A stretch of DNA of 64,000 nucleotides from Spizellomyces punctatus DAOM BR117 (GCA_000182565.2 KQ257453.1), one strand, 5' to 3'. Numbered from the stretch's first letter, positions 4,048 through 52,963 are shown. Numbers and translations are program-made. The notes: generated by a model from the letters alone, not told the origin.

Positions 4048-7000
4048 ATGGATTCACAACAACAAACCTCGGGAGGCACACCTGCTGGTAATGCCGCGCC
4101 ACGCTTTAGTCTTCCTGCCGCCGGCCCTCGTCCAAACAAGATAGAACGGCGTCTTTCGCCATTGAACCCGCTTGCAGCATCTCCCTCCGGACTTGCCCCA
4201 ACCTCTCACCCGCTCCCTGCAAAGTCTCTGCATCGTTCAGAGTTTTTAGATCCGCTTGCTGCTAATAAAACCGTTGTCGCATCGCCACCAACCTGCGGAT
4301 CGTTTTTGTCTACCTCCGAACCTCCTCCCATTCCCACTAAATCGAAGCGTCGGACCTTATCTAACATTACAGCAAGCCTGCGAAAGCTAACCAAGAGTTT
4401 TTCTGAGAGTGATGCCCCCGAAAGAGAGACGAATCCATCCTCACCTGTGTCACCAGTCCAGTCCAAACCTCTCCCAGTACCCCCCTCAATGCAATTGCGA
4501 AGGACAAGTCGCTCCTCAGCTACATCGGAGAACAGTGACACTGACAGCTCAGTTTCACCAAAACCTGTTAGTCCCAGTAGTTCTGGAACCTCTCCGGTTC
4601 ACATACCATCCCGGCCGAGGAAAGGATCGTTGTTGGAACATAACGCATGGGGTGGAAGCCTACCTTCCATGTCGTCCTCTAGTCCAAACCGGCCTCTCTT
4701 ATTCCAACGATATGGGTATGCTAACGACAATAGCGGGAATAGTGACATAGTGACCGATCCATGTCCAGCACGATCTGTAGGCTCAATAATGCAACCTCTC
4801 TTTCCTCAGGAAGATGGAGGATTTGAGGAAGGAGAATGGGATGATCCGACAACAATGGTTCCGAAACACTTGCTGATGACCACGGGGTCTCTGCCAGATC
4901 TGCCACGTTGGTCCCGTCAAGCTCTATTGCAGCACCCTCAGCGATCTGACTCTTCAGGATCATCTAGCGTGGTATCGCCTCATGGTCAAAGTGTGCATGT
5001 ACTGAGTACTGCCACCATGGACAGTAAGAAACCCGTTGGAAAAGGCAGGCATCAAAGTTTTAATTTCGGGGTCAAGCCCCTTCATGTCGAAGGTGAAGGG
5101 ACAGCCTCTACCTCTGTACCGCCAATGACTGCGGTGGGACGACCCGGTCGTGCACGAGCAAATTCCGGTGCTCCTAATCTGGCATCACTCGAAAGGAACA
5201 GGGAAACTGAGGTCCGCTCACAAGGCAGTGAAGTGCGCTCATCCAGTGTTTTTAGTGCGTCGGACGTGGATGCTCTCCATGCGCTATTGGATAGATCGCG
5301 ACAAGTTAAAAATTATCGATGGAAGACGTCAGAACCCGTTGCCGTATGGACTTCCTGGACGGAATACACAACCCAGAGTACATTCCATCCAATCCTTCCG
5401 CCGCGCAAAGAATCGCGAGCATCCATGTTTGATTCACCATTGCTACAACCCCTCTCTACAGATGTACGTTCCCCAAGTCCAATGTTTTCGCTGGACGACG
5501 ATGACGCTCCGGATGATGATGGCGCATCTGTCGGCTCGGGATCCACAACAACCTCCCGACGCTCTCGCCCAGAGTCTCCATTCTTTGCTACTGTTCTTGG
5601 CAAGAAGAGGTTGAGCCGCTCTGGAAACCCATTATCAATAAAAACTAGTACGCCAGGTCAAAAGCAATCTTCGGACGTCCGATCCCCATCTTCTTCGCCA
5701 CGAGGAACCGGAGCAGAGTCGCCGATCGTCAGTAGCAATACCTCCCAGCAGGCTGCCGAGGGCCCCACAATGACACGATCACTCAGCGACGGAGATTTGT
5801 CCGAATATCTGAAAGGCTACAGTGAAATGAAGAACTCGTTGCGAATAGCGAAAACTACATGCAATGCCCAAATCCAACGCATTATTGCCGAATTGCATGC
5901 TTTCGTGGAAGGAAGTTTGGAGTATCACGATCGAGCGCCACCACCACTGTCCTTGAATCCTTTCGATAGTGCCAGAGCAAGAGCGGCGTCAACTACGGCG
6001 CTGTTTGGACCGGACAAAGAGAAAGGAAAAGGTTCGCTTATGCACGCACTATCCGAAGGAAACTTGTCCCAATCCTCTGGTGATTGGGATCGTAATACGT
6101 CAAACGCCCAACTTGACTCACAGACATCTTGGGCGTCGGATTTGTCTATAGCTGCCGATGAGGATGCAAAGGAGCCGCCGTTATTGAAGGCTGTCACTGA
6201 ACTGATCGCTATTGCGCAACATATTCTCGAGATGGATTTGGCGCAACTCATGACCCCTGGCGCCTGTCGGGACGCAATCTCTCGAATGATGGCTTTACGG
6301 GCGCTCTGGAGCAGGAACCCCGATTGGGGATGTGGTGAATATGTCATTCGTATGTTGATGGCATTTGCGGACGTGGCGCGAATGGTTGAAAGTTTAGAAG
6401 AGGATACGAGAATGTGGACGTACGTTGCTGCCGGGTCCGTGGCATCTCAAGGGGGACAGCTGGCAGTGACTCAATCACAGATCCAGCCTCGGTCGACATC
6501 CAGACCAGGATCGGGAAGCCGACACATGCGCCCCCCGCTTCTTCGACGCGAGTCACTTTCATCTGGGCTTGGACTCGAATCGAGTGGTGGCGAGGAAGAG
6601 GATGGATACCAATCATTCACCGACAGTGGAGCAGAAGCTAGTGATAGCACGAAGGGGTCCTTAAACCGTCGGCCAAGTGGACGGGGAAGAAGTATCAAAC
6701 CACCGGCTCCTCTCCAACATCAATTTTCACAACCGCAACTGGTGCGACCTCAGGAAAATTGGACTCTGACTGAACTTCGAGCAGCTGCCGGGGAAGCACA
6801 AAGTGTGAACGTGATGATGGAACTCGGATTTGACGGGAGACTGTTGTATGTATCTCCTGTGGTGAAAATGGTTTTCGGATACGATGTGGAGGAAATGGTA
6901 AATGAACTCGATAACTCTCCTCAAAACGGTACACTCCCCTTTCTTCCCCCCGAAAGCTCAGATGCGAATGTTTTCAAAGAGGCCACCGCAATGCTTCAAC

Positions 7001-18636: not shown

Positions 18637-19272
18637 GACACGGATAGATAAAAAATCCTTTAGGCTTTCATCACCTAATAATGCTTCAAAGACCGACGAC
18701 AAAAAAAGCTTTCGTATGCAAGCTATCTGTTATTCTAGAAAACAACGTCAACGACTAGAAGTGCGACAAAAAAAAAACAGCCAACGTCCGGGGACCAGGT
18801 CGTTCAACAAATGAATCTAGTGCCTTTGTGGGTCTCTGCGAGGTCTAGAAGTGAGCGTTCCAGAGTCCTGGGTCATGGATGCTGATCCTGTAAAGGAACA
18901 TTGCACCGAGTTACCAACAACCAAAAGTTCCCATTTATGGGTTTACATTAAGGTAGAGGATGATCCATGATATTCTGGTTATATCCGATCGCATGGTCCG
19001 GAATCTCGGCCCGTGAGATGTGACTCTTTTGGATAGAGTGGGATGGATGGAATGCATGGCCATATGATTTAATAACCTTTTGAGATATCAAAGTTGCTCC
19101 AGATCTTGTTTGGACAAGCGGATGTATTGGCTGGGGTGTATCCACAGCTTGTTTATAAAGGTTTAGAGTTGCTCAGCAGATCACCCTGTCCACATGTTAC
19201 AGCCACAGCGAAAAACAGATATGGAACAAATATACCGGTATTTACAAAATGTCTATCTACACACAGAAATTG

Positions 19273-25309: not shown

Positions 25310-25686
25310 AAGTCAGCACCATTCACGGACGATGTCGGGCTGGGCTGTAAATAGTGGACCTCTCACACACACATGTTTGTTTATCCTTGTTAGCCAAACC
25401 CCATCTCTCTTTTCTGTATATACCGTGCCCATGTGTTCATAGCGGGGTTTTGGAGAGTTTTTGTAGTGTGATCCCTTAATAATGATTTCCCTTTCATTCT
25501 TTGTATTGAGTCCAATGCAGCGGAACGGCGTACCCGCCAGATGCTGTACACATAGAGTATGGGCGGGAATTTCACAAAAAAGCCCGGGCCCGGGTTCACG
25601 TTTTGGTGAATACCCGCCATTGCAAGCAAAGAAACAAATAAAAAACAAACAAGGCAAGCGTCCCAATCGATGTACATAGCATGAGA

Positions 25687-31888: not shown

Positions 31889-33867
31889 TAAGTTATGATA
31901 TATGTATAATGAGGCTGCAAAAGACAGGCAAACCCTGAGGCTTTGCAAAGTCTCTGTGTCGCGGCTTGTACTGCATCGCGGCGCTCAACGTCGCCATGAT
32001 TAGCCTGAGAGATGTGCTAGATATTCTTGAGAGTTATGATAATAGAGGTCGCTCCTCTAAGACGTTGCAAATATGATCGAATGAAACTGTCTCGTCATCC
32101 CATCTATTGATACTTCAGAGGGGGCTTGGTCCCGAAAAGTTATGCTGCTTACGCGAAATGGAACAAACGTGAGCAGAAATTCCAGAAATTGTCAACGGGG
32201 TCTTGGATCCAAGTATTCGGTAACGAGGACAACGACGTCATTGACCCGCAGTGGTGGATTGGCAAAAGACACCAGAGACCGAGATTCGGGGGAAGAGACA
32301 TCCGATTTTGCTTTTTAGGTTATTACGCGATTTGTACAAAGAAACGACGTAATTCACGACGTAGTTAGCCCCGAGTTGTAGAGAGAGAAGCTTCCGCGGG
32401 CGACCCAGGTTCCTAGTTTTCGGGAATGAGTTCAATTAGGATTTTAAAGTGCTTATGCGTGTTACCTGAAATGGCGGAGACAATTTTCCGAAATGTCAAC
32501 CGGTCCGCGGTCCAAGCACTGGAAACATGCTAATCCAGTGTGAATGTCCCTCGCATGATCTCCCTACGAGTACTGAGTCGGTGGTGAAGACAAGACAGCA
32601 CTAGTACGCAGGATTGCAAAACACACAATGGTCAAACTCACGAGAAAGAATTGCTATGTGATTTTGAGATCGAGTACTTTCGTCGAGTCTTATATCATCA
32701 CGGAACGTATCGATAGAACAATGAATGTATTTCCGCAACTGCGATGACCGAAAGAACGAAAGACAATTCGCTTGACAACTTTCCATCCAAGTTATGGTTA
32801 ATAACACGGACACGTCTAGAAAACCACATCAAAACTACATCACTCTGTCTCTCTGGTAACTCATCTGTAGGCTTCGGCCTACTTCTTTCGGACTGTTTGT
32901 TCTCGCGCCGTCCATGCCCTGGTGTACTCTTTACTGAACGGAACTTGGCGCTACCAAGGTCCATCCGTTTCACGGAAGGACATCTCGACCTTGGACGCGT
33001 CGGCAAAAGTCGACGATGGGTCGACGATGTCTTGGTTTGGAAGGAGGCATTTTTGCAGTGTTCCTCTGTACAAGAAAATCGTCAATCACTCTGATATCAA
33101 AGTCCCACTTGTGTAATCTCGGGTTGCCTTCATCTGCTTCTTCTGGGTGACGAAGTTTCACTCTAATCTGATGCGCCGAATGAACCTTTGGACGGATATC
33201 ATGAGCGGTCGCTGACTGGTAGCCCTTGACCGAGTGACTCTTGTATAGAGAGGTAGAAGTCTTTGTTCTACCAGCAGGAGGCTGCGATCCCAACATCATT
33301 CCGTGCCATGGACGAATATCCGCTATCAGCGATGACTCCTCAGCAGATCTGTTGAATCGCTGGAATGGCTGGTGTCGAAAGCACTCCCGAGATAGCGGAC
33401 GAATCACTGGAAACGGCGGCGGAATTCCCGTACATGTCTTGTCCACATGCAGTGGTACGGGATACTGTGCTCATGCACCGGTCAAAGAGCAAGTAGCTTT
33501 TCGAGACACAAGCTCAAGACTGACAGCAGAAACCTGAAAATACGGCGTATAGCGGCGAACAGAAGACTCGGCGCGTTTTTACTCTACGTGATGGAAACAC
33601 GACGCGCAACATGAGAATACTAGTTGCGAATGGGTTTTTGAGCAGCCAACATACTACGAACGACACTCCCATCTCTGGCTCAACGAGGATAGCGGATGAG
33701 CCGAGTGCGAGCCAGTTTAAAATGCGCAGTAGCGATGAAGGAGTGGGTAGACCGGATGGTGGTCCTCTCCGCGCGAACCGACTCAGTATATCACTCTTCT
33801 ATATGCGCACTAGAACCATGCCCATATGTATTCGAGAATGAAGGTCATTGTGCATCTCCGAAATAAG

Positions 33868-39789: not shown

Positions 39790-40600
39790 ACCTATCTCCT
39801 GCATGACCACACAAACCGCCGCCTGATGACCACAATAAAACTCAATCTGACCAAGAGTATTTCAATACGATGATGTACAATACGAGGGTTGCTTGATATG
39901 CTTGCTCGTATTGTTTGGATACATCTTGTCACAATCGTTACCCGATGAATGACTGCAATAAACTGTTTAGCGACGGGACAGTAAACGTATTTGTTCAATT
40001 CCCTTGTAGAACCCTGGAGTGTTTACAAACGTTCATCTGTTTGTGTTTTGTACATCTTGATTGGGATGCCATCTATTGTCCGTATGGAAATGTCACCCAT
40101 AGCCGAGAATCTACCCAACAATACTAAACTTTATTTGTCAGGCAAATACGGTAAATGAACTTGGGAGTCAAGACCTTTTCGATCGGGAAATACAATCAAA
40201 GTATGTAGCTTCCGGGACTTTTAGTCCTTTGATGCAAGCCGACTGGATTAGAATACTTGGTAGTCCGGCTTGAGCCCACTCAATCACTTTACGATGATTG
40301 TACAGAGACAAAACATCCAAATTCCAGATCTCTGATTGATCTTTGTTACAGTAAAGACATATTCTAAATGCCAATGGACCTTGCGGAGACTTGATCTCTG
40401 ATGACAAGGACAAGTAATCAAATTGCCCACTGTCAATGTTGGAAGACATTTGAACCGGCCTATCTTGTCAACAAAAAAGCTGACAGATGCTGCAACATTT
40501 TGCATCCTGCGGGATTTGAACTCTCCAACAAGCTACCACTCCACCACCGTTCACCAATGGGGCAGCCCAAGATGCAGATTGCAATGCATTGATTCAATCA
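39790..40600 (-). pseudogene. Decayed coding remnant with CxxC pairs
   Basis: One frame reads ...KCCSICQLFC*QDRPVQMSSN...RICLYCNK...SKRS* with in-frame stops. Family not recognised. Confidence 0.25.
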
Positions 40601-41109: not shown

Positions 41110-41414
41110 TTGAGCCAATCAGCGTTCGTTCATGCGAGTCCTCGTTCGTCACAAGAACGACGACGGTGATGGTGTGATATCGTTCTTGAGCCAATCAGAG
41201 TGCAGAACGATTGCGTATTGTCGCAGAAAGACATTGTTGGGCCAATCAGAGTGCAGAATGATTGCGTATTCTCGTCGTTGAGCCAATCAGAATGCACAAC
41301 GATTGCGAATCGTCACCCGCCGTCGTCGTTGAGCCAATCAGAATACGTCCATGCGAACGGCTGTCGTCATTCAAGAAGGTTCGTTCAAGTGATATCCTTC
41401 TTTGAGCCAATCAG
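41110..41414 (+). promoter_or_regulatory. Array of six CCAAT (NF-Y/Hap) boxes, TTGRGCCAATCAG
   Basis: Copies at 41110, 41186, 41237, 41278, 41329 and 41402, all in one orientation and matching the RRCCAATCAG consensus. Confidence 0.75.
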
Positions 41415-42771
41415 AATGCAAAAACGTAAGCGCTTCCATCATAAAAGAATCCAAAGGAGAAGGAAAAGAACGCGTTCGTAGTGTGAAATTGGGCAATATT
41501 ACCTTCTCCGTGTTCTTTTAATTGGCCCCCCTCGGGCCATCTGCTGCGCGTAACGCGTTTCCGCTGGGGGAATGGGGAATTATGGGGGGGATTCCCCCCA
41601 AGCATAAAAGGACGACCCATTCCCGCATCCCCCGGCTCTTTTTCCTTTGTATCCCTCTTCGTGCCCCTACCGACTTTCACTCCTCAGACACGTCTGTTGG
41701 GTGGTATTGGATGTTTTGTCTCGTACAATCATCTTAAATGCATGTGACTTTCCTGGGTGATTTAGCGATCCACGGCGTCGTGCCAGCAACGTTGTGGTGA
41801 GCGGTCATTTGGGGGGTTGGGTCGAGCGACACCCTGAGTCGACAACAGTGAGCTTGGTTCCGTATGCTCCTGTGCAACCCGGCTAGGTCCCGGAGCTGAG
41901 GGCCCCGCTTCGTGCCGCGTTCTCTAATAAGACCACCTACGAGGAACCTTGTGGGTAACAACGGGCAGGTGCTCGGTCAAAGTCTTCCGACCGCAAGCGA
42001 GGTTGACGCAACCCTTGGGGTGTTGCTCTTGGGGCATTCAAGGGAAAGAGCAACACGGCCTACACGACAACGACGACATCGCGAAAATGGCAACGGGGCG
42101 GTACGCGGACCCCCATCGTTTCGGAACGCTAGGTTCGGCTTCTGTCGGGCTCATCCGGAGCGAGCGAAGGCGAGGGTCGCACGGGTCCCCTGTTCCTTGA
42201 GTTCAGGATGGCCGCGTGCTCCCGATCAACGCATTGTGCTGCGTCGAGGAGCGGCACAGCGATGCCCGCGTCCTGTCACGCCCGTTCTGGTGAGGATCTT
42301 GGTTTTCTATTCGACCTTGTCTTGTATCTCTTCTGATCACTTTTTTTTTCATAGGGCCGACTTATCTGACCAGTCCTGGTAAGCATCTTGCTTTCTCTTT
42401 TCTTTTTTTACTTCATTCATACTAATCATTCTTTTGCTTTTATAGTCGGAGCGACACCAATGGGCCGCCCCATCCAGGCGCTAAACTGGTAGCTGTGTAT
42501 TCGGACCAAGGCCGAGGATTCCGCGGTCTCCGTTTCTCTCCGGTGTACGTCGGTGGCGATGAGTGAGCGTGCTTAACCTGGCTCCTGAGCATCAAAGCCG
42601 GTCGTGGTGTAATCCGGGCAGCGGGTTGAACCGGTTCTCGGTCAACTTGGTTGATACTGGGGGCTATACGGTCAGGTGGGCTAGCTGCAAAGTGAGCAGC
42701 TAGCCAAATCCTTCCCGGGTGGGCACTTGCGCTTGAGCCTGATCAACTCAGGCGCAAGCGGCTCACCGAAT

Positions 42772-43080
42772 ATTGGTTGGTGCGAGGGCTTGTGTTGGTT
42801 GTTGGCTTGTTGGTTCTGAGGGCGTCACTGTACATACTTGGTTGGTGCGAGGGCTTGTGTTGGTTGTTGGCTTTTGAGCTGCGAACTTGGTGATCCCAAG
42901 GTCCTGGCTAGCGAGGTTCAATTCCTTGCTTTCTTGTAAATACTTGTTGGTCGTTGGCTTGTGTTGGTTGTTGGCTTGTGTTGGTTGTTGGCTTGTGTTG
43001 GTTCTGAGGGCTTCACTGTACATATTTGGTTGGTCGTTGGCTTGTGTTGGTGCGAGGGCTTGTGTTGGGTGCTGGCTTGT
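42772..43080. repeat. GT-rich minisatellite, about 18-bp unit GGCTTGTGTTGGT(TGTT/GCGAG), inside a ~205-bp duplication
   Basis: Directly visible. The module GAGCTGCGAACTTGG...GAGGTTCAAYTCCTT occurs at 42876 and 43081. Confidence 0.9.
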
Positions 43081-43189
43081 GAGCTGCGAACTTGGCGATC
43101 CCAAGGTCCTGGCTAGTGAGGTTCAACTCCTTACACCCGGCGTTGTGGGGTCCGATCCCCCATTTCGCCACTGCTACATACAAAAACAC

Positions 43190-43243
43190 AGAGGAGTGCC
43201 AAATTGGTTGGCTTTAGGGGTTCGACTCCCCGCTTCCTTTTTT
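43190..43243 (+). other. tRNA-like element lacking an anticodon arm
   Basis: AGAGGAG / T / GCC-AAATTGGTT-GGC (D arm with GG) / TTTA / GGGG-TTCGACT-CCCC (T arm) / GC / TTCCTTT, running into T6. Confidence 0.6.
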
Positions 43244-44716
43244 ATAATCTGCTCGAGACTCTTACGACGACGACGACGACGAAATGCAAAACTCGAACTC
43301 TTACGGCGAGCAAGTCTCGAATCAGTCGATCTGGCGATGCCGGAAAAGTCTTCGCAACAGCGATTTTGGTCAGCGGCAAGAGATTGAAAACGGCGACGAT
43401 CAAGAAGAGCAGATGGTCCATCTACTTTGCTTCAGTGCCAGTTTCGAGTATTTCACGACAGCTGAAAGGAACGTGAGGTTCAAGCATTTCGCTCAAGCAT
43501 TTCGAAACGACGTAGAATTCTCGGCTACGACCATCTTGGAGAACAATGGAGAGTACTAAAAACGCAGTTGAAGCAGTTGGCTCGTACACGTTTCAAACTG
43601 GCATTGTGGAAAGGCAAACTGTCTACGACAACTCTAAAAGGACGAGGTGTTCAAGCATTTCGAAAGTGAAATAACGCGCATTTGCTACGACAACTTTCAA
43701 GGTCCGACGTGGAAAGTCCTTCATATCGCTCAAGTGTTTTCGTCAGTTGCATATCCGTCAGTGGCATATCCAACGGCAATTGTGAAGACGGGAAGGTTGG
43801 AGCAAGTAGATAGTGGCATATCTGGGTCAAACGGAACACTCTTTGCATTTCAAATGATTGATATGCAAGGACGGTTCACCAAAGCATGTCGAAGTACAAG
43901 CATTTCGAACCGACATTGCAAACAATTGCTACGACATCAAAGGACGGTCCAAGTATTTTCATATCGGCCAGGCGCTTCAACGGTTGCAAAATACCGCTAG
44001 TCTACAAATAATTATCAAGGACGTACGATCGGAAGCAAAATCACAACATCAGCTCACCTTCAGTACCGATAACCGAGCCATTTTTTGTTCCGCAACGAAA
44101 TCATGTACAAAAAGAGGGAGTAAGGTCTACCTAGTACTTTCCGATAGCATCGCTGAGACGGACGTTCAAGCATGTTAAAGTGGTAACCGGTATTTTGTTG
44201 ACAAGAACTCTCGACGTCGGAGATTTTCATGCGTTTCGAAAGGTGACATGTGCGGACGGATAGTGTTCATGCTGGCATTCTTATGTCGGCTCGATAACCC
44301 GGCTATGATCGTGCTAGGCTGGTTCAAAAGGTTGCATTTTTGTAACTTTATATAGCGACGAACCCTACATGGCGCTGAGGATAAAAGCGTTGATCGTCAG
44401 TTGTCGAGGGTTTTGTGGGAAAAGAGGTGGTAAATGGTATCTTGAAAGTCTACGACTTTGCTTGTCATTGGAAGCAATTGGCGAGTAATAAAAATATAAT
44501 TTGGCAAAGGTGGGCGGACAGTCAATAGATGGTAACAGATTATCATAATACAAATATACAAACAGATCGACCCCGACAAAGTCATAACAACTACCATATT
44601 TTTTTTTCATCATTCCGCTACAAGTTTGCTCAGAATGAGTCCAACTAGGACATACAAAAAACTGCCATAAGGGGAATCTACACATATACAATACAAAAAA
44701 AAAAAATCCAAAATGT

Positions 44717-51166: not shown

Positions 51167-52963
51167 TCAAACCAAAAAAGCCCCAACAAAAGCCCCAACA
51201 CCCGCCCCAGTAACAGCTCCCAACCCCAACCCAACAGCACCCTCCTCAGCACTGCCAGCAATATCAACATGGGTATAACAAACCGGTGATGAAGAATCCA
51301 AGCCATGTTCAACAACACCAGAAGCAACAGATAGGAATGCAGCAGGGAATTGATGGCCTCGGTTGGTTTGTGTGGAGGCTTTGTCGTTGGCTTGGATGAC
51401 GTCTTCGGTGGGCGATGAGGCGGAAATAAACTAGAAGAAGTGTTTTAAAAAAGATTTTGGTTGGGGGGGAAATGGGGGGGGGGGGGGAGTACCTCAAAAT
51501 CTTCACGTCGCAAAGTCGATTTCTCAAACCCATCTCCAAAGACATGTCCTGCTCTACACAGTCGACCCGCAATATCCTCTTCACGTGCAGGGCCATTATC
51601 TAATGCGATGCCGTAGGGTCCTACAGCGCGTACGGCGTGCCCTGTGAGGGTTGCGACGGTGAAGAGGCGGGAAGAAGGGCGTTGGAGGGCGATGTCTTTG
51701 GCTTCGCAAAGGAGATCGGCCATGACCATTCGGCCTTCGGCGTCTGTGTTGCTAAGAGGGGGTGTTGGCATTTCTTTTAGGAAAATAAAAAAGAGGGGAG
51801 AGGAAAAGCTTACCCAACAAGAACTGTTATAAAAAAGATGAACCATTCAGAAACACAGCCGTAAATATCAAACACGAAAAGAATACGGGCATACCTCGAA
51901 CACCATGTCTAGAAACAATAATCTCATCACTGACATACCCATCCGCTCCAACACTATTCCTCACAAACCCTAACGCACACCAAACACCAATATCCGGTCT
52001 CAAAGACGCAACAGTTTTCATAAACCCCGCACAAGCAGCCGCTCCACATTTATCTCTCGACATGCCGCGCATGATACCGCCGGCTTTAATGTCCAAACCC
52101 CCTGTATCGTACGTGACGCCCTTACCGACTAGAAAGAGGTTTTCACGGGCAGAGGGGGGTGAGTATGTGAGGTGGACGACTGCGGGGTGGTGGCGGGGGA
52201 CGGAGAGGGAGGCGCGTGCGACGGCGTGGAGGAGGGGGTAAGATGTCCGAATGGTCTCCACGTCAGTGAGAACAGAAACTTGAACATCGGTCCCCTTGAA
52301 AACTTGTTGAATGTATTCAGCACATTTCAACGGCGTCATTCGTTCCGGGTCTGCACCGCCAATATCCTTTGCCACCCGTCTCCCCTCCTCAACAGCCACA
52401 GCAAACCGAATGGCTTCATGTACACCTTGATCCCCTTCAACACACACACCAATCTCATCAACCACTTCAGCCTCTTGTCCCATCTTGCTAAAATGTTCAC
52501 GAGCCTGAAGAGGGACATAGGCCTCTGCCAAAACACCCAACAAAGCAACTTCCAAAAACCTCTTGAAATCCCTCTTGATCCTTTCAGAATTATTTAAAGG
52601 AGACGGGATATACAGGATGGGTTTCTTGATTCCCGCCGCTCGCGCACGAGCCAACCCTTTTCGAGCCGCATCCGCGAACCGACGCACATCATCCACATCA
52701 CCGTGTATGGATCCCGTTGGGGAGAGTACGAGACGCGAGCCGGGGGCTGTTGGTGTCGTGTGGAATGTGACGGTTTTTTGAGCGGAGGCGTCTAGAGAGT
52801 GTATGGAAGTCATTAGCGATGCGAGGGGTTGGAGGATGGGACTGGATGCCCGCAGGGATGGGTCAGTGAACAGCACGACGAGACCGTCGTAGGTTGTGGT
52901 TTTGGCATTGAGGGCTTGGGTGAGGGGTTCACCGGTCAGAGGGACAAGACGAGGAATGCCCAT
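51167..52963 (-). CDS. M17 leucyl aminopeptidase family
   Basis: LVGKGVTYDTGG, MSRDKCGAA, NTDAEGRMVMAD, ATLTG, THVDIAG; stop at 51169-51167. Confidence 0.93.

Follow-up and report, generated by a model that had tools for sequence, protein, structure and literature searches.

T-arm-like hairpins near the 3′ end of an apparently non-coding, spliced transcript in the chytrid Spizellomyces punctatus

Why should two near-identical copies of a hairpin resembling the T arm of a tRNA lie 205 bp apart in the genome of Spizellomyces punctatus? The original prediction, made from the sequence of a 64-kb window (the whole stretch of DNA analysed, 64,000 nucleotides of KQ257453.1), described a duplicated tRNA-like module with an A-box-like word in both copies and a compensatory base-pair change in its T arm, and favoured RNA structure over a pure TFIIIC site. 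The feature is real and non-random, and it is mislabelled as a tRNA-like Pol III module: the two modules are no independent genes but form the ends of the units in a tandem duplication, and they lie within what is apparently a spliced, non-coding Pol II transcript.

Reading of the sequence bore out both the positions and the letters of the two T-arm-like stem-loops, GCGAGG-TTCAATT-CCTTGC at 42911-42929 and GTGAGG-TTCAACT-CCTTAC at 43116-43134 (both on the plus strand), as well as the fit of both loops to the T-loop consensus, the core GGTTCRANTCC being exact in each. Each stem-loop belongs to a module of two hairpins, and each module to a repeat unit of ∼190-205 nt, in which GU-rich 17-mers, a spacer with UGUACAUA, more 17-mers and the two-hairpin module follow one another:

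42764-42942, plus strand: repeat unit 1 (17-mers, UGUACAUA spacer, 17-mers, module 1, then UGUAAAUA)
42877-42930, plus strand: module 1, in which a 12-bp hairpin with a bulge (42877-42909; UGAUC loop) is followed directly by a T-arm-like hairpin of 7 bp (42910-42930; UUCAAUU loop)
42943-43134, plus strand: repeat unit 2 (same order as unit 1, with module 2 at its end)
43064-43141 including an acceptor-like stem, plus strand: module 2, with counterparts of both hairpins (43082-43114, CGAUC loop; 43116-43134, UUCAACU loop) enclosed by a possible 7-bp acceptor-like stem, GUUGGGU/ACCCGGC (43064-43070 with 43135-43141)

The direct repeat itself (42841-42927 versus 43046-43132) shows 93% identity at a start-to-start spacing of 205. 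The predicted duplication is therefore real, and the duplicated block is larger than had been stated: 42787-42927 can be aligned with 42973-43132 at 84% identity over 160 columns, and this likeness breaks off precisely where the T-like stem is completed on its 3′ side. GT-rich repeats do precede the copies, with a period of 17, not 18.

Within the repeat, seven differences are found in 89 ungapped columns (42841-42929 versus 43046-43134). Two of them together turn a C-G pair of the T-like stem into U-A, so that the predicted C-G to T-A double change is present and pairing is kept. The other differences had all been assigned to loops, which is correct for two, one T/C difference in the loop of the CTTGG/CCAAG hairpin and one T/C difference in the T-like loop, at the free N of GGTTCRANTCC, and incorrect for the remaining three, which lie in the GT-rich part upstream. 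None of the pairs predicted within the repeat is broken by the copy differences; the seventh, A-U pair of copy 1 has no counterpart in copy 2, its 3′ partner lying beyond the end of the repeat.

How much weight can this pattern bear? In a neutral simulation that scattered seven substitutions over the 89 columns, with helices chosen after the data had been seen, at least one compensatory double change arose with P = 0.04-0.046, the absence of any broken pair with P = 0.06-0.15, and both together with P = 0.006-0.013. As only two sequences are compared, a shuffle control of covariation is uninformative (245/500), and when the pairing partners are slid, the paired fraction falls from 97% to 33-58%, a drop that chiefly attests to the presence of the helices. 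The covariation is suggestive: it rests on one pair, recognised post hoc, at a nominal P of ∼0.04, and one compensatory pair found between two paralogues carries little weight as evidence. The helices of each module also contain three G-U pairs, which become A-C mismatches on the other strand, so pairing works only in plus-strand RNA. The preference for RNA structure over a pure TFIIIC site is thus favoured by transcription of the locus (see below), by the plus-only G-U pairs and by the preserved pair, while the covariation behind it is thin. Module 1 is predicted to fold at -20.8 kcal/mol on the plus strand versus -16.2 on the minus strand, no better than its shuffles (z -1.67); module 2, whose minimum free energy (MFE) structure is a cloverleaf, does not differ significantly from its shuffles either (z -0.61/+0.11).

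Whether the modules resemble a tRNA gene beyond the T arm can be judged by the remaining features of such genes. At default settings ARAGORN called no tRNA gene in the 64-kb window and none in 42700-43300, and with lowered thresholds it drew only poor cloverleaves, at 42847-42936 and 43064-43142, the latter built on the 7-bp acceptor-like stem around module 2. No Rfam family reached its gathering score in the 64 kb; at E ≤ 10, no tRNA, mascRNA or viral tRNA-like family matched 42000-43800 or 42840-43260, and 42840-43260 matched no family at all. Membership in a known RNA family was rejected on this basis, the weak matches at E ≤ 10 elsewhere in the window being irrelevant. The consensus of the A box is TRGCNNAGTGG. 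The word proposed as an A box in both copies, TGCGAACTTGG, has at least four mismatches to this consensus, and 6.6% of window positions are equal or better; as an A box 30-60 bp 5′ of the B box it is no better than background, and that part of the prediction falls. The B box, or T arm, is represented by three exact GGTTCRANTCC cores on stems, and no T-run terminator follows module 1 or module 2, the only one being a T6 after a third element described below. Since the module as a whole fails ARAGORN at default settings, Rfam at E ≤ 10 and the A box, its likeness to tRNA is confined to the T arm: the modules mimic only this arm, and the status of tRNA gene is rejected.

The T-arm-like hairpins are not limited to the two modules, and two further elements follow on the same strand:

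43139-43169, plus strand: H3, a hairpin whose outer stem (GGCG/CGCC) is separated by a UU/UU internal loop from a 6-bp stem that carries the T-loop-like loop UCCGAUC
43190-43243, plus strand: third element, which alone resembles a tRNA beyond the T arm: a mini-tRNA-like three-way junction running into T6 (43238-43243), closed by an acceptor-like stem (8 bp, one bulge) and bearing a GCCAA/UUGGC hairpin as well as the T arm GGGG-UUCGACU-CCCC (hairpin 43217-43231, loop UUCGACU)

GGTTCRANTCC occurs three times in the 64-kb window, where 0.37 occurrences are expected and 0 of 100 shuffles reach three, and all three are at this locus (42915, 43120 and 43219, with stems of 7, 6 and 4 bp, respectively). 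Hairpins with a TYCRANY loop on a stem of at least 4 bp number nine over both strands of the window, versus 7.4 in shuffles; four of these nine (module 1, module 2, H3 and the third element) fall within 42910-43231, all on the plus strand. When duplicates are counted once, the Poisson probability of at least three TYCRANY hairpins in 322 nt is ∼1e-6, or ∼4e-4 after multiplication by the number of windows, and on the strength of this corrected value we regard the cluster as real. H3 is the sole element of the cluster whose folding energy beats that of its shuffles (z -2.65; this structure takes up 0.89 of the ensemble), the third element being unremarkable in this respect (z -0.75, not significant). 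Because the 5′ strand of H3 overlaps the 3′ strand of the acceptor-like stem of module 2, the two pairings are mutually exclusive. In the MFE folds, acceptor and T-arm helices stack as 7 + 6 bp in module 2 and as 8 + 4 bp in the third element (z -0.61 and -0.75, respectively), and a run of A5 (43182-43186) lies just 5′ of the third element. An H/ACA or C/D snoRNA at 43139-43243 was considered and rejected, with no ACA or C box seen by eye and no Rfam match.

Does RNA carrying these hairpins exist? Public RNA data on 41700-44200 (457 raw X23 reads, from ∼6% of the content of the X23 runs, together with X9, X10 and X11 contigs) outline a transcript with three exons:

41744-42288, plus strand: exon 1, from RNA contigs and the splice joint 42288/42354; 5′ end approximate
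42289-42353, plus strand: intron 1, 65 nt, GT..AG, GC 0.35, T9 at 42341-42349
42354-42377, plus strand: exon 2, 24 nt, from RNA contigs (X9)
42378-42444, plus strand: intron 2, 67 nt, GT..AG, GC 0.27, T7 at 42403-42409
42445-43152, plus strand: last exon, from X10 contigs and X23 depth; 3′ end approximate, ∼43140-43155

Exon 1 (GC 0.61), whose start at 41744 is the first base of RNA contig X11, is covered by contigs of X11 (41744-42052), X9 (41879-42108) and X10 (42045-42288), and both introns are spliced out in RNA contigs of X9 and X10. The joint over intron 1 has further support from six X23 reads, the loose ends of which correspond to the first bases of exon 2. Exons have a GC content of 58-61% and introns of 27-35%. 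X10 contigs cover the last exon at 42445-42564 and 42789-43152, and the contig at 42974-43152 runs through module 2; the stretch 42564-42789 is bridged by no single contig and has an X23 depth of 1-3, and the exon is likely continuous across it. Immediately 5′ of the repeat units, 42680-42760 holds two long hairpins that are almost perfect (a perfect 10-bp stem, and a near-perfect stem of ∼12 bp or more inside a further stem); RNA depth dips there, and 42445-42770 folds better than shuffles (z -2.48).

The six X23 reads, spliced at 42290, fall in a bin where all first mates are on the plus strand, so that a first mate on plus denotes sense; from this, from the GT..AG borders on the plus strand and from the module reads, which are likewise first-mate-plus, we infer that the transcript is on the plus strand. 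At 42372-42623, X23 reads run in the opposite direction to those of the flanking exons (first mate minus, depth 6-14), which suggests antisense RNA or mixed chemistry among the pooled X23 runs, and the strandedness of X23 is therefore not clean. The T9 and T7 runs inside the introns argue for a Pol II rather than a Pol III product. A protein-coding role was rejected for either strand: ATG ORFs of the spliced RNA do not exceed 50 aa, none of the three ORFs over the transcript locus matched a Pfam family, and the longest open frame had no relative among proteins of 70-226 aa in a collection of 5.8 billion proteins. The host is apparently a spliced, non-coding Pol II transcript of S. punctatus that extends from ∼41744 to ∼43150 on the plus strand. 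Telomerase RNA was also considered and rejected, as the plus strand of 41700-43250 holds no CCCTAA-type template (the sole match is on the minus strand, at 43214-43219); the literature searched gave no Spizellomyces telomere repeat and nothing relevant on tRNA-like RNA, lncRNA or telomerase RNA in this genus.

Several features were noted around the start of the transcript. A word of 31-33 nt occurs as an inverted pair at 41707-41738 and 40288-40320 (1.4 kb apart, 94% identity), with very high read depth (46 in X23, 525-1378 in X10) and loose ends on both sides, 109 of 116 reads having an extra T after 41722. Its depth and loose ends indicate that the word is part of a sequence that is strongly expressed, or repeated, at another place in the genome, and the pair may represent terminal inverted repeats bounding an element directly 5′ of the transcript start. 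CCAAT-containing repeats are found ∼300-550 bp upstream of the apparent start and may be a promoter element; this DNA motif accounts for the peptide-like motif that appears three times in the open-frame translation of 41170-41430.

RNA coverage ends among the hairpins. X23 depth over the modules rises from 6 to 35 up to 43127, then drops to 5.8 (43128-43211) and to 0.1-0.2 (43212-43295), a collapse at ∼43140-43155, within the T-arm-like cluster; arithmetic on these 84-nt bins places the end near 43141, at the junction of module 2 and H3 and 5′ of the third element. Module 2 falls in the bin of highest coverage and is spanned by a contig, so any excision of it is inefficient. At 42912, the 5′ partner in the base pair by which the module copies differ, C is read as A in three of ten X23 reads (three start sites), which may reflect an allele, a paralogue or an error.

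Another reading is that of a small Pol III gene, made up of the third element and perhaps of module 2 and H3 as well, which would use an internal promoter, terminate at T6 and yield a tRNA-like RNA of 55-180 nt overlapping the tail of the Pol II transcript. Such a gene would explain the perfect B box at 43219-43229 with T6 only 9 nt later, the closed three-way fold with paired ends, and A-box-like words with two to three mismatches at 43189-43209; yet A-box matches of this quality are common in this GT-rich stretch, no Rfam family and no default ARAGORN call correspond to it, and read depth over 43212-43295 is 0.1-0.2, though libraries of this kind usually lose small RNAs. We consider this reading very improbable.

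Could the cores act in DNA? At yeast ETC and fission-yeast COC sites, TFIIIC sits at B boxes without tRNA production. The present cores resemble these sites in being clustered away from tRNA genes and between two transcribed stretches, and a GGTTCRANTCC cluster that binds TFIIIC without a tRNA might serve as a boundary, or as a Pol II roadblock before the next gene. This reading accommodates a same-strand group of four cores in 322 bp, three of them perfect and one imperfect, RNA coverage that ends inside the cluster, and a location between the host transcript and the next transcribed stretch (43700-44200). However, TFIIIC needs the core only, whereas all four cores are extended into stems of 4-7 bp whose G-U pairs work only in plus-strand RNA, the between-copy change outside the core is compensatory, and modules 1 and 2 lie within a stable transcript. 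Unlike ETC and COC sites, the cores are thus part of transcribed, base-paired hairpins with a compensatory change, and they are candidate TFIIIC sites by sequence. A role as DNA sites is, in our estimation, distinctly unlikely.

Beyond the cluster, 43465-43950 contains several families of direct repeats of 18-32 nt at spacings of 170-420 nt, plus-strand ORFs there share short peptide motifs, and RNA is seen at 43700-44200; Pfam returned no family above threshold for 43465-43950, and sub-threshold matches for two downstream ORFs. The window is eukaryotic: further away, a neighbouring ORF on the minus strand (51827-52963), by which the organism was identified, is 100% identical over 94% of its length to an NCBI protein of S. 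punctatus DAOM BR117, the next genera being at 57-62% identity.

Are the hairpins merely inherited? Under a neutral view, an old tRNA-derived insertion (a pseudogene or a SINE-like element) would have been exonised and then tandem-duplicated by slippage of the 17-mers, so that the T-arm likeness would reflect ancestry and the compensatory pair luck. The region is a nest of local repeats in which duplication is easy, there is but one compensatory pair with a nominal P of only ∼0.04, folding z-scores are ordinary, T6 closes the third element as it would a Pol III unit, and relaxed ARAGORN draws cloverleaves, if poor ones, at 42847-42936 and 43064-43142. Against such ancestry, all tRNA features other than the T arm would have decayed past recognition while three of three GGTTCRANTCC cores stayed perfect and the sole difference within the T-like loop hit the free position, a selective sparing that neutral decay would hardly produce; moreover, the 64 kb holds no other copy, and among the loose ends listed none pile up at the module borders, unlike those at the 31-nt repeat at 41707-41738. 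We judge the relic explanation unlikely, if not strikingly so.

Collecting further copies had been proposed as the check on covariation, and it yielded none, in the window or in metagenome contigs, so that this check comes down to the one compensatory pair. Self-BLAST of the 64-kb window recovered only the local repeats and a chance 22-nt hairpin at 32941, and a strict module pattern had 0 matches in metagenome contigs; the dispersed copies characteristic of a tRNA-derived SINE were accordingly seen in neither. A looser pattern matched at least 120 loci, and among the matches listed 104 of 120 were tRNA-Gly by ARAGORN and 16 were not called as tRNA. Among these 16, one ORF-poor contig (L009; L053 is the same sequence) carries at 5303-5343 a CTTGG-N5-CCAAG hairpin, 10 nt and a perfect GTGAGG-TTCAACT-CCTCAC hairpin, for which ARAGORN made no tRNA call and which is identical to module 2 by eye over 19 nt around the T arm (23 nt at 96% by BLAST). 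It was rejected as a homologue, since the BLAST match covers 23 nt only, the contig is AT-rich (37% GC) and no flanks are shared.

The reading that we prefer, tentatively and at somewhat less than even chances, is that the hairpins are RNA-level mimics of the T arm which shape or protect the 3′ end of the transcript. A role at this end is suggested by the clustering of the mimics at the RNA end, by the acceptor/T-arm stacks of ∼12-13 bp and by the A-rich stretch. The closest known parallels are the mascRNA-type elements of mammalian MALAT1 and NEAT1, tRNA-like 3′-end elements of Pol II lncRNAs. Like these, the present locus has a T-arm-bearing tRNA mimic where a long non-coding Pol II transcript ends (the end being placed to bin resolution) and a short A-rich stretch (A5, 43182-43186) before the last tRNA-like fold. 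Unlike them, it has no Rfam match at E ≤ 10 and no full cloverleaf, it has several T-arm mimics instead of one, and its host is fungal. The U-rich triple-helix motifs of MALAT1 are also missing: up to T6, no T run in the last exon exceeds 4, and a MALAT1-like triple helix was rejected for want of U runs, with one A5 run only.

In plants, PMC6152437 describes Arabidopsis GUT15 as a Pol II lncRNA that yields a tRNA-like RNA with CCA and whose tRNA-like sequence has no autonomous Pol III transcription. The present transcript is similarly a Pol II lncRNA with a tRNA-like sequence; on the same account, the GUT15 element is intronic and gives a stable CCA-bearing RNA, whereas the elements described here are exonic or terminal. 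The locus is not a member of the MALAT1/NEAT1 or GUT15 families.

T-arm mimics could also be recognised by enzymes that modify tRNA. Pus4/TRUB1 are tRNA T-loop enzymes that act on T-loop-like mRNA hairpins. For the m1A58 writer TRMT6/61A, PMC6076376 gives the motif GUUCRA and T-loop-like mRNA hairpins as substrates, and by that description modules 1 and 2 and the third element are alike in presenting GUUCRA in a 7-nt loop on a stem. Unlike for those substrates, no mismatch is listed at these adenines in the reads, a weak contrast at a depth of 10-35, and one that depends on the reverse transcriptase used; an m1A58-like mark was rejected in the absence of any misincorporation listed at the loop adenines at this depth.

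The repeat units have other features too. A motif scan located three copies of UGUANAUA, the Pumilio/PUF motif, at this locus:

42829-42836, plus strand: UGUANAUA motif
42935-42942, plus strand: UGUANAUA motif
43017-43024, plus strand: UGUANAUA motif

Two of these three are duplicates of each other, and the repeat region looks like a UTR-like, presumably protein-binding part of an RNA. Over the whole window the PUF motif TGTANATA occurs 16 times versus 4.68 expected (0 of 100 shuffles reach 16), with other small clusters at 25346-25678 (plus strand) and 19239-19261 (minus strand); given this window-wide enrichment, the motifs at the locus may simply mark a UTR-like region. As described in PMC4947167, NORAD likewise has repeat units that each pair UGUANAUA with a hairpin in a non-coding RNA. 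Repeat units with UGUANAUA, as putative PUF sites, are present here too; unlike NORAD as presented there, the locus has only two units and three motifs, and the two RNAs are unrelated in sequence.

How might such a transcript have arisen and work? On the most economical account, the hairpins are structural modules, at the RNA level, of a lineage-specific lncRNA: a local tandem duplication would have made the module pair, in which base pairing would since have been kept by selection. The T-arm mimics might recruit factors that handle tRNA, such as RNase P, RNase Z, the CCA-adding enzyme, La or T-loop modifiers, or might simply form a stable terminal structure; by either route the RNA would have its 3′ end set or protected, and the upstream repeat units would act as platforms for protein binding. 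Reads and sequence show the duplication, the hairpins, the splicing, the lack of an ORF and the drop in coverage at the cluster; that selection acts on the structure, where exactly the RNA ends, and that it is cleaved or bound by factors are what we infer. The fullest version of the model, a spliced chytrid lncRNA that combines a tRNA-mimic terminus handled by the tRNA machinery with a NORAD-like array of Pumilio motifs, is a long shot.

The principle of a tRNA-mimic 3′ end, as in MALAT1/mascRNA, has so far been described in animals and plants (GUT15), and S. punctatus is an organism that can be grown and transformed in the laboratory. Should the locus be only a relic, it would still offer a clean case, in an early-diverging fungus, of an lncRNA that is lineage-specific and built from repeats. 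Should the mimics have a function, the borrowing of tRNA shape to finish or stabilise Pol II non-coding RNAs would be older and wider than the animal and plant cases suggest.
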